From: a virus
Lineage: Duplodnaviria; Caudoviricetes
Length of the DNA stretch: 52,330 nt
IMG/VR virus record: IMGVR_UViG_3300030385_001830
Coordinates: 1-52,330 of that record
Direction: 5' to 3' (one strand)
Made by a program: the position numbers and the translations under genes. Numbering within the stretch: position 1 is the stretch's first letter; each line of letters opens with the position of its first letter. The notes beneath the pieces are model-generated. The model was not told the origin of the DNA. It did not search any database and was given only the letters and a program-made list of their open reading frames with translations. Of this stretch, positions 26,138-45,511 are shown piece after piece.

Positions 26138-27208
26138 ATGGCTATTAGACCAAAAGGTTTTAACGGAAAACCTCCTGTAAAACCAGGAGATATTCAGAAG
26201 TTAGAAGTAACAAAAGAATTTTATAGGTGGATAGTAGAACGCCATGAAATCTATCGTCGCCGACTAGACGGTTATCCTTATCCATGGACAGAAGACCCTG
26301 TCTTAAATCGCTACAAATTCACTAACCCCTTTAGAGAAAATGATGCAGACACTATATGGATGCGTGATTATTTTAGGCCTGACATTTTAAACAAAAAAAT
26401 CGGTTTTGCTGATATCAACCATAATATAGTTAATGCCGCATTGTTTAGAATGATAGGCACCCCCGAATTTGCACAAGAGTTTTTAGAGCAGCATAGGTGG
26501 ATAACTAAAATTAATTACAACCCCGAGTTAATTAAAAAAATAATAAAAGACCGGCTGGCTGCAAAGAAAAAATGCTTCACGGGTGCATATATTGTTACTA
26601 ACCAAGGGATTAAAGCACCCAAGGCTGATGTGGTAATAGATGAATTTATCACACCACTGGCTAAGACACTTCAATACCCTTACACACTTCCCATAGAAGG
26701 CGCAATTTTCAATAGACCTGTTTTAGATTGCATGGAAGATTTACATTCCCTATTGAAAAAGTTTAAAGGGTTTGGGGGTGGAGGTTTTATGGCCTACGAG
26801 GTAGTTACTGATGTAGCTAACATGCCTTTTTATAATCCACTAACAATGAAAATGCGCCATCCTGCCAAGTATATTAGTGACAGGTACCGTTGGGCTAATG
26901 CAGGTCCCGGAGCCATACGAGGATTAAACCGTATATATGATTTTCCTTATAAAGCACGTATGCCGCAAAAAGACGCTAACCTTAGAATGCGAGAAATCAT
27001 AGGGCATAAGTACCTAGCGCATCAATTAGCCGAAGAAAAGGGTTATGACCCAATAGAATTTAAAGACATAGACATGCGCTGCATAGAACACAGCTTATGT
27101 GAATTTGATAAGTATTGCCGAGTTTGTTACAAACAAGGCAAACCCCGTTCTGTTTGTAAATATGACCAAGGGGAAATTTATCCTATTAAGGAAGGCCCAG
27201 TTAAATGA
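26138..27208 (+). CDS. 5-hmdU DNA kinase helical-domain (aGPT-Pplase1-like) DNA base-modification protein
   Basis: ERHEIYRRR...PWTEDPVLNRYKFTNPFRE, GFGGGGFMAYEVVTD, GPGAIRGL and IEHSLCEFDKY motifs. Confidence 0.8.
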   Translation: MAIRPKGFNGKPPVKPGDIQKLEVTKEFYRWIVERHEIYRRRLDGYPYPWTEDPVLNRYKFTNPFRENDADTIWMRDYFRPDILNKKIGFADINHNIVNAALFRMIGTPEFAQEFLEQHRWITKINYNPELIKKIIKDRLAAKKKCFTGAYIVTNQGIKAPKADVVIDEFITPLAKTLQYPYTLPIEGAIFNRPVLDCMEDLHSLLKKFKGFGGGGFMAYEVVTDVANMPFYNPLTMKMRHPAKYISDRYRWANAGPGAIRGLNRIYDFPYKARMPQKDANLRMREIIGHKYLAHQLAEEKGYDPIEFKDIDMRCIEHSLCEFDKYCRVCYKQGKPRSVCKYDQGEIYPIKEGPVK

Positions 27209-40377: not shown

Positions 40378-40726
40378 GGCTAAAACTCCTGTGTGTGAAC
40401 TTTTGTTGTGTACTACACTTGTAGTATGGGGCCGCGACTATCACACCACAACAACAACTAACTGTATATTGGAGCTTCTACAAAAAGTTTGCTATATAGG
40501 GGGATTTACAAATATCAACAATAAACTTTTTCACATATACAAAATATACAATATCACACTATATTAATATCTTTCCCAATTATCAACTACTTATCAACCA
40601 TGGAACCATCAAATGTATATTGTGTTGATCAATAATTGACCAAGTCTCTGGGACGCGCGATCCTTTTTCGTGAAAAAATAAAAAGTGTAACTTTTCACTT
40701 GGGGTCCTATATAGTAAAGTTACTTC

Positions 40727-41263
40727 ATGCCCTTACCCAAACAAACTCATAAACCCCATCTAGAAGTTGTGGCAAATCCCCGCACTGAAAAAAAGATAAC
40801 TCCCAAGCAAGAGGAATTTGTAAGGATTTATTGTTGCGAGGATGTAAGCCAGACAGAAGCTGCGGTACGGGCTGGATACTCTAAGAAGTCTGCACACGCC
40901 ATAGCATCCCAATTATTAAACGGCACTAGATATCCCCACGTAGTAGCTAGAGTTTATGAGGTAAAAAATGAGCTGGCACACAAGTATGAAGTCACATTTG
41001 AAAACCATGTAAAAAAACTAGCAGACATAAGGGATCTAGCATTACGTGAAGGATCATACGCTGCTGCTGTAGCGGCTGAAAAGAACAGAGGACAGGTAGC
41101 AGGTTTATACATTGATCGTAAAGAAATCTTGCACGGAAAGATAGATACTATGACAAGGCCAGAAGTATTGAGGGAAATACAAAAGCTGCATGAGGAATAC
41201 CCTGTGTTGAGTGCAGTGACGGAAAGCAACCTAGTGATAGAAGGGGAAGTTGATAAAACCTGA
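40727..41263 (+). CDS. terS: Terminase small subunit
   Basis: ITPKQEEFV...QTEAAVRAGYS..SA...ASQLL HTH; AAVAAEKNRGQVAGLY. Confidence 0.85.
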   Translation: MPLPKQTHKPHLEVVANPRTEKKITPKQEEFVRIYCCEDVSQTEAAVRAGYSKKSAHAIASQLLNGTRYPHVVARVYEVKNELAHKYEVTFENHVKKLADIRDLALREGSYAAAVAAEKNRGQVAGLYIDRKEILHGKIDTMTRPEVLREIQKLHEEYPVLSAVTESNLVIEGEVDKT

Positions 41264-41675
41264 AAGCAAATTATGGCGAAAACTGAGGGAAGGCACGCGT
41301 GGGCAAGATGTGTTTTGGACAAGGTTGGAGTCATGGGCTGTACCTGGAGTCCCAGATCTGCATGGTATTGTAAATGGTTACTCTTTTTGGCTAGAACTCA
41401 AGCTGCATAAGTTAAAGTCCTTAAATTATATAAATCTAAGTCCGCATCAAATAGCGTGGCAAATAAGATATAGTGGGAATAGTGGATGTGTGTGGAACTT
41501 GGTTGAGCATCCTTCCTCAACCACTATAAATATATTTAGAGGGGAGAGGGCCATTGAGATAGGCCCAAAGAGGGAGAGGAAAGACCCATTGGTAGTGGAC
41601 TGGAGCTCATGTGCCCCGTACGATTGGAGGGGAATGATGGCATATATCGTCTCCCATCCACTCCCCAAAAAATAG
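41250..41675 (+). CDS. PD-(D/E)xK nuclease (Holliday junction resolvase / VRR-NUC-like)
   Basis: ESKLW, GVPDL, FWLELK and LSPHQIAW motifs. Confidence 0.8.
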   Translation: MIKPESKLWRKLREGTRGQDVFWTRLESWAVPGVPDLHGIVNGYSFWLELKLHKLKSLNYINLSPHQIAWQIRYSGNSGCVWNLVEHPSSTTINIFRGERAIEIGPKRERKDPLVVDWSSCAPYDWRGMMAYIVSHPLPKK

Positions 41676-41695
41676 AGACCAAAAAATGAGAGAAG

Positions 41696-41832
41696 TCGTG
41701 TCTACTCGCCTCTAGTCGTGTCCCTTCGTATCTTGTCAACTCCCCGTGGATCATGGACGATGGTCATTGATCGATTACGATCGCCATGGATCGCCATGGA
41801 TCGCCATGGATCTTGGCCGATCGCCCACGATC
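41696..41832 (+). repeat. Phased TC array (5-bp period) running into a GATC array (10-bp period)
   Basis: TC every 5 bp from 41696 to 41741 (ten copies); GATC at 41749 and every 10 bp from 41769 to 41829 (GATG at 41759). Confidence 0.95.
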
Positions 41833-41848
41833 GGTTAACCGTGGGCAT

Positions 41849-41883
41849 AAAAAAGTCCCGCTTGCTAAACTAACAAGCGAGAC
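41849..41883 (-). terminator. Rho-independent terminator of 41906-42496
   Basis: GUCUCGCUUG/CAAGCGGGAC stem followed by U6 on the minus strand. Confidence 0.7.
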
Positions 41884-41905
41884 CGTGTAGTGGCAAAATA
41901 GTCAG

Positions 41906-42496
41906 TTAGGCTTTAGAAGCCATAACGGTTATAGGTTTAACGACCAATTGCACCAAGGACTTGCCGTAGAAAAACTTGCTACGATCCTTTGTGGTATTGG
42001 TCCCGTTTAGCAACATGAGAAGCGTATTGCCATCCCCAATTGTTGCTGTGGACTCTGCTACTTTACCACCAGTAGCTTTGATGGCTACATTTATGTGGTT
42101 GAGTCTACGGCTGGCGGTTTTGCCACCTGCGACTGGTTCCCACTTGAGCTTATCAAATGCTTTGCTCTTGTTGCTGGGTATACCGTCTTTAGGTAGCTGG
42201 ACTCCAAATAGCCAGCAGCGTAACTGATTAGCACGAGTTGTAGTGCTAGCTGCGAACATACCCGCAATCTTAGCGGTATTGGCCCAATTTTCAGCAGTAA
42301 TACCTAGTGAGTCAAACAGTGGTGTAGTTTCTACCACCACATTGGCTTGAAGGTCTGCTGCATTGTCTTTAACAAATTTTGCTACACAAGAACCGCTGAC
42401 CAATTTGTTGCCATTGGTTGCGAAATTCAGGGTAGCCCCGTCGGTAAGGTTTAGAGCCTTTACCAGAGGCTTGGCGGTTACTTTCTGTTTAACCAT
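41906..42496 (-). CDS. Unknown protein, paralogue A
   Basis: 196 aa; promoter TTGTGG-17-TAGTAT upstream; shares GMFA, TGGKV, GNTLxMLLxGTNT and VQLVVKP with 43127-43738. Confidence 0.75.
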   Translation of the reverse strand: MVKQKVTAKPLVKALNLTDGATLNFATNGNKLVSGSCVAKFVKDNAADLQANVVVETTPLFDSLGITAENWANTAKIAGMFAASTTTRANQLRCWLFGVQLPKDGIPSNKSKAFDKLKWEPVAGGKTASRRLNHINVAIKATGGKVAESTATIGDGNTLLMLLNGTNTTKDRSKFFYGKSLVQLVVKPITVMASKA

Positions 42497-42688
42497 AGTC
42501 GTGTACCTTATGTTTGACTATTTTTGCCACTACAAATTCATACTAACATGTACCACATCGTACCACAACAACTGATTACCTAATTACCGAGCGGTTCCCC
42601 CAAGATTGAGACCCAAAATTGAGACGCCGAACTAAGATGGAGGGAGTAGGAGTGACTATACATGTATCTATATATGTTACTTATGGTT

Positions 42689-42732
42689 GATCGTGGCCGA
42701 TCTTGGCCGATCGCCATGGATCATGGGCGATC
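42689..42732 (+). repeat. Second GATC array (10-bp period, 5 copies)
   Basis: GATC at 42689, 42699, 42709, 42719 and 42729; units GATCTTGGCC, GATCGCCATG and GATCATGG are shared with the first array. Confidence 0.95.
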
Positions 42733-42847
42733 TAGGGTGTTGCCTCTTTCCCCCTATCCCCTCTATTGTATCTAGTGCTGTAGGTTGGATAGTCGTTGTG
42801 CCATACTACAATTGTAGCAACTAACCCCAAAAAGGGAGACCCAAAAT

Positions 42848-42946
42848 ATGAGACAGCTCCTCTATTATACTCTGTTATCACTCGCGTTTATTACGCTCGC
42901 TATTAGCTCCGCCATCATCTGGTGGTTGGTAGCACCATGGGTATAG
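42848..42946 (+). CDS. 32-aa single-transmembrane peptide (not in ORF track)
   Basis: Promoter palindrome at 42802-42818, AGGGAG RBS; MRQLLYYTLLSLAFITLAISSAIIWWLVAPWV. Confidence 0.5.
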   Translation: MRQLLYYTLLSLAFITLAISSAIIWWLVAPWV

Positions 42947-43126
42947 CAATAGCTTTTTATATAGTGCTAATACTACTGTATATATAGCCAGTACAATATA
43001 CTGTATAAAATAACAGTATAAATATACCATTGTTTAACACAAAAGTGTTGTGTTTAGCATTTACCTGTGCCTATAATGCTTTATTGGCTTGCAATAAAGC
43101 GGGTCAATAAACACAGGTATAAAACC

Positions 43127-43738
43127 ATGCAAAAAGTAAATACACAAAAAGCAATTACAGCCGGTATAGCTAACCTTAACAGCAATGCCATTTATACATT
43201 ACCTGCTAGTGGTTTAGCTAATGGTGCAAACATTGCAACCTATGCAACTAATAACTGCAATAATAAACTTAGCCAAATAGCCGTGGTAATAACACCATTT
43301 GGTAAGGGTTTAATAAAAGGGTTACCCGTACCCGCTAATGGTTTAAGTGGTAACGCTGCTATTAATGCTTACATGCTGGCGTTTAAAAACTTAAACAATG
43401 GCATGTTTGCGGTTGGCAGCACGGTACGTTGTTACCAGTTTTTGTGTTACATGTTAGGTGTTGTGCCTAACAGTAGCAAAAACAATAAAAGTAAAAAGTG
43501 GGCTAATTTACAGGCTGCTAATGCTTTGGGTACATTAGGTGGTAACAATGCTAGTAGTAGCTTAGGGCATATTGGCACAGTGGTTGGGCACACTGGCGGT
43601 AAAGTTACCAGTGGCAACATTGCCAATGGCAACACACTTGCTATGTTGCTAAGTGGCACCAACACTATTAAAAGCCCGCAACATGCTTTTTTTAAAAAGC
43701 CCATTGTGCAACTGGTAGTTAAGCCTAACCTTAAGTAA
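43127..43738 (+). CDS. Unknown protein, paralogue B (no Asp or Glu)
   Basis: Perfect TATAAT at 43072-43077, CAGGT before ATG 43127, 203 aa, homologous to 41906-42496. Confidence 0.75.
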   Translation: MQKVNTQKAITAGIANLNSNAIYTLPASGLANGANIATYATNNCNNKLSQIAVVITPFGKGLIKGLPVPANGLSGNAAINAYMLAFKNLNNGMFAVGSTVRCYQFLCYMLGVVPNSSKNNKSKKWANLQAANALGTLGGNNASSSLGHIGTVVGHTGGKVTSGNIANGNTLAMLLSGTNTIKSPQHAFFKKPIVQLVVKPNLK

Positions 43739-43760
43739 TACACTTGGCCCCATTGGGCAT

Positions 43761-43793
43761 AAGCCGGGTAGCTAATAACTACCCGGCTTGTTT
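43761..43793 (+). terminator. Probable terminator hairpin
   Basis: 11-bp AAGCCGGGTAG/CTACCCGGCTT stem with a weak U tract. Confidence 0.55.
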
Positions 43794-43942
43794 GTGCTTG
43801 TTACTTTTTGCCTAACGCCTACCATATGGTTAGGTACCTAGCACCCGTTATATGGTGGTACCCTAACACCTACCCTATGGCCCCCCCCCTGAGACATATA
43901 AGGGTACCCGTCAGGGTGGCCTTATACTGTTTACCATGATTC

Positions 43943-45511
43943 GTGGGAGAGCAAAAAATTATTAACAGGGGTACCCCCCTAGACACTGAAAGTGGCCCTA
44001 GGTTCATTGCTGTGTGGAAAATTTCGATATATGATTTTTATATGGATGATAAAGAAATTGAGAAAGTCCCAGAGGAGCGATTGAGGAGTTATGCCCAGTT
44101 GCTTGAGCGAGCGCAGCAGTTGGATCTGGCGGCGGCGGCGCGATTGGGATTTATGGAGTTTGTGTTGTTGGCGTGGCCTGAGTTTATAAATGGACGCCAC
44201 CATAAGATAATGGCTGATAAGTTTAATAAGTTGGCGGCTGGAAAGATTAAGCGCTTGATAGTTAATATGCCGCCGCGCCATACGAAGAGTGAGTTTGCCA
44301 GTTATTTGTTACCGGCATGGATGATGGGTAATAGACCCCATTTGAAGATAATGCAGACGACGCACACGGCAGAGTTGGCTTTTAGATTTGGCCGAAAGGT
44401 GCGTAATTTGATGAATACGGACCATTATAAGCAGATATTTCCTGGAGTGAGTTTACGCGCAGACAGCCAAGCGGCGGGACGTTGGGAGACAAATGCGGGT
44501 GGTGAGTACTTTGCGGCAGGAGTAGGTGGTGCGGTTACGGGCCGTGGTGCGGATTTGTTAATAATAGACGACCCCCACAGTGAGCAGGATGCCCTAAGCC
44601 CAAGTGCCTTGGAAAATGCTTACGAATGGTATACAAGTGGCCCGCGCCAACGGCTCCAGCCAGGAGGCAGTATAGTAATAGTAATGACCCGCTGGGCAGA
44701 TAATGACCTCACCGGTAAGCTGGTAAAGCAACAGGCAAGAGACATCCTAGCCGACAAATGGGACATTGTAGAGTTCCCAGCTTTAATGCCCGACGATAAA
44801 CCGCTCTGGCCCGAATTCTGGAAGAAGGAAGATTTAATAGGCGTAAAGGGTAGTTTAAGTGTAATCAAGTGGGAGGCCCAGTGGCAACAGAACCCCACCA
44901 GTGAGCTGAGCGCGATACTAAAACGCGATTGGTGGAAAAAGTGGAAACACAAGGAAATCCCATCCTGTGTTTACTTAATGCAAAGCTACGACACCGCATT
45001 TAGCAAGAAGGAATCCAGCGACTACAGCGCAATAACCACATGGGGCGTTTTTTATCCAGAGGAAGATGGCCCCCCAAATATCATGCTATGCGATGCACGA
45101 CGAGGACGTTGGGATTTTCCAGAGTTACGCCGCATCGCCTTTGAAGAGTACAAATACTGGGACCCAGAGATAGTGCTAATCGAAGCAAAAGCCAGCGGTA
45201 CCCCCCTAATACAAGAGCTACGCACCATGGGCATACCTGTAACCGAATACAGCCCAAGCCGAGGAAACGACAAGATGTCACGGGTTAATTCAATTGCCCC
45301 GTTATTTGAAACTGGGTTAGTATGGGCACCGGATACCCGCTGGGCTGAAGAAGTAATAGAAGAATGTGGTGCTTTTCCATCGGGAGAGTTCGATGATTAT
45401 GTGGACACTGTTACCCAAGCACTGCGCCGCTTTAGAGAGGGTGGTTTTATAACCCACCCCGAAGATTACAAAGACGACTTCTCGGTTCCTAAGCAGAGAG
45501 TATATTACTAA
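43943..45511 (+). CDS. terL: Terminase large subunit
   Basis: MPPRHTKS Walker A, IIDDPH Walker B, VMTRW, QSYDTA and DDYVD nuclease motifs; true start may be ATG 44042. Confidence 0.95.
   Translation: MGEQKIINRGTPLDTESGPRFIAVWKISIYDFYMDDKEIEKVPEERLRSYAQLLERAQQLDLAAAARLGFMEFVLLAWPEFINGRHHKIMADKFNKLAAGKIKRLIVNMPPRHTKSEFASYLLPAWMMGNRPHLKIMQTTHTAELAFRFGRKVRNLMNTDHYKQIFPGVSLRADSQAAGRWETNAGGEYFAAGVGGAVTGRGADLLIIDDPHSEQDALSPSALENAYEWYTSGPRQRLQPGGSIVIVMTRWADNDLTGKLVKQQARDILADKWDIVEFPALMPDDKPLWPEFWKKEDLIGVKGSLSVIKWEAQWQQNPTSELSAILKRDWWKKWKHKEIPSCVYLMQSYDTAFSKKESSDYSAITTWGVFYPEEDGPPNIMLCDARRGRWDFPELRRIAFEEYKYWDPEIVLIEAKASGTPLIQELRTMGIPVTEYSPSRGNDKMSRVNSIAPLFETGLVWAPDTRWAEEVIEECGAFPSGEFDDYVDTVTQALRRFREGGFITHPEDYKDDFSVPKQRVYY

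Follow-up and report, generated by a model that had tools for sequence, protein, structure and literature searches.

Helically phased TC and GATC arrays between the terminase genes of an uncultured marine podophage and its relatives

Introduction

The described systems closest to the element reported here are built from short, clustered DNA words. The pac site of phage P1 holds clusters of GATC-bearing hexamers. Iteron and centromere arrays, such as ParR-parC, the omega-protein heptads and the MetJ boxes, are bound cooperatively by small dimeric proteins, and the GATC-rich tracts of the oriC 13-mers, P1 oriR and Vibrio cholerae ori2 are origin sequences read by SeqA/Dam. Upstream of mom in phage Mu lies a cluster of three GATC sites without strict phasing, where Dam methylation blocks a repressor. 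Here we describe a tract of TC pentamers and two arrays of GATC sites, all phased on the DNA helix, between the genes for the small and large terminase (terS and terL) of an uncultured marine podophage. The sequence is IMG/VR record IMGVR_UViG_3300030385_001830, a stretch of 52,330 bp (the window) classed in that database as linear and 89% complete.

Base modification bears on these comparisons. The available text of one study states that Dam methylation gates pacase cleavage at P1 pac (PMC6449724). In phages M6, ViI and phi W-14, TG/TC was inferred as the context of hypermodified thymidine from restriction resistance, and the available text of that study does not report modified sites as positional signals (Flodman et al. 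2019, PMC6449724). The podophage shares the same enzyme family with these three phages. Its array and a neighbouring island single out TC; TG is not avoided.

The locus resembles P1 pac in its clustered GATC words with a flank preference (here YGATCR) within a packaging region, and in the idea of a base-modification gate. It differs in its strict 10-bp register, its up to eight units, its position outside terS and the lack of any phage Dam found; moreover, its core word changes between lineages whereas the TerS helix does not. Short repeats, one per helical turn, sometimes in two clusters around a promoter and beside a gene for a small basic protein, recall iteron and centromere arrays, but the unit core is only 6 bp and no ribbon-helix-helix (RHH) or other known DNA-binding fold was recognised. 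Several GATC about one turn apart are also found in the SeqA/Dam origins; unlike these, the locus has no DnaA boxes, no skew shift, GC-rich spacers and distant replication genes. The likeness to Mu mom lies in a GATC cluster upstream of a phage promoter as a modification-state switch, although here there are up to eight sites and the first of the two arrays has no promoter downstream.

A phased TC and GATC element

The element and its copy comprise four features (positions are those of the window).

41696..41745, + strand: TC tract of ten pentamers, each starting with TC, with no GA; alternatively a 20-bp unit repeated 2.5 times
41749..41832: GATC array 1, eight sites at 10 bp in the phase of the TC tract (starts 41749, 41769, 41779, 41789, 41799, 41809, 41819, 41829)
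42604..42655, + strand: GA-dense tract with 11 GA and 0 TC, unphased (residues mod 5 = 4/3/2/2)
42689..42732: GATC array 2, five sites at 10 bp (starts 42689, 42699, 42709, 42719, 42729)

The pentamers run TCGTG TCTAC TCGCC TCTAG TCGTG TCCCT TCGTA TCTTG TCAAC TCCCC. An earlier note, made from the sequence alone, had described these pentamers, the eight and five GATC and the GA-dense tract, and all of its coordinates hold. Chance levels were taken from 300 dinucleotide-preserving shuffles of the whole window. The longest 5-bp-phased run of TC was four in 24 shuffles, three in 257 and two in 19, against ten observed, which places the periodicity far beyond chance. Other dinucleotides never exceeded a 5-bp-phased run of six anywhere in the window. 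In array 1, seven GATC are strictly consecutive at 10 bp, a run that never exceeded two in the shuffles, and the slot at 41759 is occupied by GATG. From base composition, 195 GATC would be expected in the window, which has 109; the 13 GATC of the two arrays are therefore a concentration inside a GATC-depleted genome.

The TC tract and array 1 share one register. Between 41690 and 41840, 18 of 19 TC fall in a single 5-bp phase, the TC of each GATC continuing the register of the tract, and nowhere else in the window is the period-5 TC power as high as in these 150 bp (2.0; the 99th percentile is 0.23). When 41701-41831 is written in rows of ten, TC stands in the same column in 13 of 14 successive helical turns. 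With this shared register, all TC steps would lie on the same face of the DNA over about 140 bp.

The spacers of both arrays are GC-rich. Three units of array 1 are identical (3.4 copies at 100% in Tandem Repeats Finder, TRF) and the units of some relatives alternate over 20 bp, so slippage does contribute to the arrays. Array 1 begins 74 bp after the terS-nuclease operon. Array 2 sits between two divergent units, one with the gene parA and the other with a small transmembrane protein gene and parB. A module made of two C-run/GAGAC units, about 55 bp and a GATC array is directly repeated, with a spacing of 910-933 bp.

Conservation and selection in relatives

A terL-based scan of IMG/VR gave 464 related stretches, 80 of which were kept for analysis. 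Near-identical loci were collapsed before non-redundant counts, and eight loci from a GATC pattern scan were counted apart; loci carry the prefix L and genomes the prefix G. The general layout in the kept relatives is terS, nuclease, short repeats, cassettes of promoter, gene and terminator, island and terL. When the terS-terL intervals were compared, phased GATC of at least three units were present in 15 of the 80 kept loci, always between the nuclease and terL. Among non-redundant nuclease-bearing loci the count is 13 of 40, or 21 of 48 when the pattern-scan loci are included. Chains of three to four GANNTC (as GAARTC) occur in eight loci of the non-redundant nuclease-bearing set and GANTC chains in two. 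Locus L013 has seven GATTC copies at 10 bp, including a chain of four, and L007 and L030 (TerL identity 81-84%) have 12 and 19 phased TC in a different sequence. The common denominator across lineages is TC on both strands (GATC, GATTC, GAARTC) together with the phase, not one word.

Position is kept more strictly with respect to the nuclease than to terS: the array starts 33-164 bp past the nuclease stop codon even where terS is 1-3 kb off (L034, L019, L049-L053). Two clusters, 20-540 bp apart, are found in L023, L055, L056, L080 and L017, and close relatives have unit counts of 8/7/7/6.

A family logo was made from 85 units of 21 arrays, 50 of the units being distinct. GATC in the logo is fixed by the way in which units were selected; beside it, position 5 is a purine in 79/85 and position 10 a pyrimidine in 65/85, which gives the consensus palindrome YGATCR, and the four remaining positions are nearly free, carrying 0.04-0.23 bits. 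When the two modules of the window were aligned with L005, L006 and L087, every shared GATC was kept and 7 of 24 spacer columns were invariant, the count for the core being partly circular in that core columns were defined as shared. The arrays do not fit a simple minisatellite, with near-identical units and no positional constraint. Relatives with 74-92% TerL identity keep phased arrays in the same place with different spacers, which upholds the claim of the earlier note that selection, rather than slippage alone, maintains them. Its observation is thereby confirmed as a conserved and selected feature.

Phased GATC triplets are unique to this locus in G000, and in G001 (99% complete) they occur only at two sites between the nuclease and terL. 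Across IMG/VR, 30 stretches have at least six phased GATC, ten of which belong to this phage family, and 18 of the 20 non-family arrays are near-perfect tandem repeats with at most three distinct spacers. Varied-spacer GATC arrays are almost confined to this phage family in IMG/VR. Outside supplementary files, a literature search turned up no description of phased GATC/TC arrays in these phages, and the available text of a study of the clade distribution of hypermodification genes makes no mention of such arrays (PMC9599517).

Two further observations concern related repeats. An unrelated high-GC viral contig (L111, 1627-1818) has two varied-spacer phased GATC arrays of six and five units, about 100 bp apart, upstream of genes for a DnaC-like ATPase and a ParB-like protein. 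In lineages of the GAARTC type, microsatellite-like GATGG/GATG runs follow the terminators of successive cassettes (L031 4296-4340 and 4806-4835, and many relatives), and the part of the nuclease gene that encodes the C terminus is also GATGG-rich.

A mobile cassette between the two arrays

Arrays 1 and 2 are separated by a cassette on the opposite strand.

41854..41884, - strand: intrinsic terminator of parA, a 14-pair stem followed by a T run
41906..42496, - strand: parA, encoding a basic protein (net +14), a paralogue of parB, in the mobile cassette

The parA cassette (terminator, gene and promoter; 41854-42534) lies inverted between arrays in the window, L006, L007 and L087. It is found between terS and the nuclease gene in L049-L053 and upstream of terS in L065 and L075. 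In L005 it stands elsewhere (330-1345), flanked by a different direct repeat of about 36 bp, and the single array of that locus matches array 1 in its left part and array 2 in its right part and end. A joint from 41777 to 42698, which deletes the cassette, is present in contigs of two of four sequencing runs (two studies). Arrays 1 and 2 make up a single array that was split, or duplicated, on either side of the mobile cassette. The earlier note had treated them as two arrays; both are real, but they do not stand as independent elements, being halves of one. The arrays are thus also a recombination site at which the cassette is gained and lost in natural populations.

A TC/GA-free island and thymidine hypermodification

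Downstream of array 2, the dinucleotide that builds the arrays is excluded.

42919..43890: TC/GA-free island with a single TC at 43104, holding an AT-rich repeat, a promoter, parB and a terminator
43127..43738, + strand: parB, encoding a basic protein without Asp or Glu (net +17), in the island

TC/GA occur at 0 and 1 per kb in the island versus 66 and 36 elsewhere, and TG/CA are at normal levels. The island covers promoter and terminator DNA, and the constraint therefore acts on DNA. Islands of 0.5-1.2 kb stand next to terL in most of the 80 kept loci, with one island per genome in six genomes (G000-G005); in L011, L041 and L049 the island is lost. The exclusion reported in the earlier note is thus real and family-wide. 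Most relatives carry a pair of Par proteins, one copy of normal composition and one acid-free copy inside the island. The island also has two tandem repeats, an AT-rich 26-bp unit repeated 2.3 times before the parB promoter (42969-43027) and a 25-bp unit repeated 2.8 times after the parB terminator (43811-43880).

One open reading frame (ORF) of the window, at 26138-27208, matches PF18723, the 5-hydroxymethyldeoxyuridine (5-hmdU) DNA kinase / aGPT-pyrophosphorylase family (E 1.6e-39), and beside it lies a Thymidylat_synt match (E 1.1e-22). Elsewhere in the window are encoded a primase, helicases, a DNA polymerase, this thymidylate-synthase homologue and PF18723 enzyme, a weakly matched glycosyltransferase and a cytidylyltransferase. 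By these family matches, the window has the gene set predicted for thymidine hypermodification. PF18723 was found in the records of five of five near-complete relatives and in four of five further ones, the miss being a record that is 73% complete. In the distant relatives HTVC023P and 023Pt it was found in neither, and their 14-kb terL regions have no island. The earlier note had seen no Dam-like methyltransferase in the window, and family searches were likewise empty: there is no match to PF02086, PF05869 or PF01555 (Dam-type or N6/N4 methyltransferases), and the ORFs submitted to Pfam and PHROGs gave no methyltransferase either.

We tentatively favour a reading in which the arrays are a one-face, modification-dependent platform for binding or bending, built from the dinucleotide that is probably hypermodified. 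In this mechanism the TC tract and GATC arrays would form a single selected, helically phased cis-element. Its unit would be the palindrome YGATCR, presenting TC on each strand and recurring every 10 bp; ahead of it in this clade stand TC on one strand only, 5 bp apart and in register with the palindromes. TC is posited as the most likely target of the hypermodification pathway of the phage, so that the array would form a patch with modifiable thymines crowded on one side, and the island a stretch closed to modification. Once the sites were modified after replication, the patch would change its shape, its affinity or both, and could serve as a docking or bending platform at the junction of the terS-nuclease operon and the cassettes before terL. 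There it may gate terminase loading or the firing of adjacent promoters, and the gene in the island would be indifferent to the modification state. TC on both strands of the units, the purge of TC only, the presence of PF18723 and the TG/TC context are the reasons for which the array is read as a modifiable patch. The proposal in the earlier note that the arrays consist of modifiable sites is strengthened to this extent, by the pathway genes (PF18723 and the thymidylate-synthase homologue) and by the context given in the available text of PMC6449724.

Several points weigh against this platform. TC as the modified context is borrowed by analogy from phages in which TG counted equally, and the available text of PMC8989533 does not give the sequence specificity of the kinase. 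The correlation with PF18723 is confounded by phylogeny. M6 and PhiJL001, in which the pathway is present, have no dinucleotide-free island in the first 50 kb of each; G007 and G009 carry PF18723, yet the islands at their loci L041 and L011 are only 68-69 bp. Arrays and islands do not clearly co-occur, large islands without an array and the reverse both being found. No chain of three of any of the three tested motifs is present in 17 of 48 loci, and the arrays of L113 and L030 are plain 20-bp alternating tandem repeats. As for a reader, there are candidates only, namely ParA and ParB.

A broader proposal, which we consider speculative and rather doubtful, is that hypermodification serves as a positional signal. 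The phased TC patch would then be a checkpoint that reports fully modified DNA to the packaging or transcription machinery, paired with an unmodifiable unit encoding an acid-free protein and conserved across widespread marine podophages.

The gene module around the arrays

The module runs from terS through the nuclease gene, the TC tract with array 1 and the parA terminator and gene (- strand) to array 2. It continues with a promoter and a 32-codon hydrophobic ORF, the island with parB, a conserved non-coding element, terL, the portal gene and a holin-like gene.

40727..41263, + strand: terS, small terminase of the Terminase_2 type (PHROG 51 E 2.3e-16; PF03592 E 3.4e-12)
41250..41675, + strand: gene for a small PD-(D/E)xK nuclease, VRR-NUC/RecU-like (PHROG 2165 E 1.8e-15)
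41663..41694, + strand: leader-like motif of a C run and GAGAC, copy 1, a 14-bp unit repeated twice (TRF, repeat family, motif scan)
41686-41715: putative 9-codon mini-ORF, starting within copy 1 of the C-run/GAGAC motif
42597..42632, + strand: C-run/GAGAC motif, copy 2, a 13-bp unit repeated twice (TRF, repeat family, motif scan)
42785..42812, + strand: sigma-70-like promoter, TTGGAT-16 nt-TACAAT, read by eye and not listed by the consensus scan
42825-42840, + strand: C-run/GAGAC motif, copy 3, preceding the 32-codon ORF (motif scan)
42848..42946, + strand: hydrophobic ORF of 32 codons (translation; tblastn matches in L005, L006 and L087)
43881..44041, + strand: conserved non-coding element before terL, with two C runs with TGAGAC/TAGAC, a hairpin and a promoter-like TAGGTTCATTG...GAAAATTTCGATATAT
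44042..45511, + strand: terL (PHROG 38 E 1.5e-105)

The nuclease ORF is kept after terS in all relatives, and its stop codon always precedes the arrays. Residues E27, D36, E49 and K51 are invariant in 17 homologues, and weak matches were found to PDB 4qbo 'Nuclease' (E 0.66) and, in six of the 17 members, to RecU. The count of the C-run/GAGAC motif was matched by none of 100 shuffles in the motif scan. Five of the nine distinct C-run...(G/T)AGAC sites of the window fall within 2.3 kb (41663, 42597, 42825, 43881 and 43974), all on the + strand, and three of the clustered sites stand before start codons in the manner of a leader with a ribosome-binding site.

The true start of terL is probably the ATG at 44042 and the listed ORF start at 43943 too early, because relatives align only from about residue 38 and because of the starts of their own genes. 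This ATG follows the conserved promoter-like element, which leaves a very short leader. The non-coding element before terL is family-wide and kept down to about 72% TerL identity, and it may represent the genuine pac/cos site or a region that controls terL. No Rfam family was found in 40500-44300 at E values up to 1.

No close cultured relatives were found, a blastn search of a phage collection giving three distant terL matches. GroES and 2-oxoglutarate (2OG) oxygenases in the window fit the HTVC023P-type pelagiphage group as described in the available text of PMC9599517. The podophage is lytic, with no partition genes in view.

Alternative explanations

The alternative that survives best is an operator or centromere-like iteron array, possible though doubtful, in which a phage protein, most plausibly ParA or ParB, would bind as one dimer per YGATCR on one face. 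Regardless of base modification, binding would repress, insulate or organise the promoters of the cassettes. In most relatives the array is directly upstream of a sigma-70-like promoter and the strong ribosome-binding site of a par-family gene, and array 2 of the window lies between divergent units; the palindromic consensus itself suggests a dimeric reader. ParA and ParB are obvious candidates for it. Members of the Par family are all strongly basic (isoelectric point mostly 9.4-10.6 among 45 members), and they diverge fast, with 15-27% identity between lineages, as do the array cores. The ParA model, however, lacks a clear DNA-binding fold: the AlphaFold2 prediction (pLDDT confidence 88.5) gave a best Foldseek E of 0.44 against the PDB and a best VIA Z of 3.8, with weak winged-helix-like rows. 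Searches with ParA and ParB returned no Pfam or PHROG family, no PDB sequence match, unnamed viral clusters only in the ESM Atlas, and 11 close homologues without names. Against an operator, the highest unit number (7-8) belongs to array 1 in the window, L006 and L087, yet no plus-strand promoter follows it, and in these loci and L007 it faces a convergent terminator. The spacing between array and promoter is 56 vs 42 bp (by eye) in close relatives, with an 8-bp indel polymorphism, and the arrays of L017-L019 precede a gene outside the par family. A classical face-specific activator site is unlikely, since close relatives differ by about 1.5 turns in this spacing and no promoter lies downstream of array 1.

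A pac site read by the small terminase is unlikely. The phased sites would wrap the TerS ring, with cleavage nearby, and such a role is consistent with an array inside the packaging module, 74 bp past an operon that starts with terS, as it is with the presence of only one locus in each genome, with a contact site in every helical turn and with the two clusters 20-540 bp apart in some relatives. Two near-complete contigs break at different places and have continuous gene order across their ends, which fits a circularly permuted (headful) genome; all 11 records examined are classed as linear in IMG/VR, with differing break points. Contigs of the four sequencing runs, which carry no read starts, showed no pile-up of starts or ends, and contig breaks at the arrays were disregarded as an assembly effect of repeats. 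The ends of the G001 and G002 contigs lie inside the packaging module, between terS and the nuclease gene and between terL and the portal gene. A plain pac site is weakened because the recognition helix of TerS (…SKKSAHAIASQLLNG) does not follow changes in the array core: lineages differ in their core word, yet the helix is identical in relatives of the GATC type, of the GATTC type (L013) and without arrays (L008, L011, L015). Even with terS 1-3 kb off, the arrays are found at the nuclease ORF, and a far better conserved non-coding element lies directly before terL. The P1-like pac role that the earlier note had drawn by analogy is weakened on these grounds.

More improbable still is a replication origin, or a sensor of the host Dam/SeqA type, in which GATC iterons would be bound according to their methylation state. 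Tandem GATC at one per turn are preferred by hemimethylation readers, the phased GATTC of L013 correspond to a GANTC word, and L111 has its arrays next to genes for DnaC-like and ParB-like proteins. Array 2, unlike array 1, borders on a stretch of 64% AT, but the GC-rich spacers argue that the arrays themselves are not an unwinding element. There is no DnaA-box or IHF consensus at the arrays, the nearest DnaA-box matches being at 40527 (+) and 44013 (-); GC skew is monotonic, with no turning point in six genomes, and the replication genes are 15-20 kb away. Genomes that have GATC arrays are as depleted in GATC and GANTC as those that lack them, no common methylase word corresponds to the GAARTC arrays, and the thymine in GATC is probably replaced.

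Equally improbable is that the arrays are a by-product without a function of their own, a minisatellite kept by unequal crossing-over and the traffic of the parA cassette. The identical units here, the 20-bp alternating units of L030 and L113 and the varying unit number (8/7/7/6) would be expected of such a repeat, as would the fusion joint of arrays 1 and 2 in two of four runs, the composite array of L005 and the different direct repeat of about 36 bp around its cassette. A minisatellite would not explain why the core persists among randomised spacers down to about 74% TerL identity, nor why two different repeat types are in phase with each other. Slippage would not be expected to produce the symmetric YGATCR bias, and the arrays recur at one position in many lineages with otherwise GATC-depleted genomes.

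An ejection-pause signal, or a decoy for GATC/TC-binding defence proteins, is barely plausible: the arrays are the first TC-dense feature beside an island that no TC-directed enzyme could touch, which is general logic only, and against it, none of the neighbouring genes could be assigned to a defence or anti-defence family. Considered from its composition, the TC tract is less likely to be a TRAP-like or rut-like RNA feature, since its strict phase is common to it and a palindromic DNA word, which speaks for a role as DNA.

Implications for marine podophages

The arrays are unusual in that a large family of abundant marine phages has conserved no more of them than a palindromic core of 4-6 bp and the helical register. 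The dinucleotide from which this core is built is the one purged altogether from the 1-kb island beside it, in phages that carry thymidine-hypermodification genes. If the modification-dependent platform proved true, it would be the first case of hypermodified bases read as a signal, and it would explain a gene recoded to the loss of all acidic residues. If the link to modification fails, the arrays are still a clean, conserved landmark of these phages and a tractable one for finding the protein that reads it.

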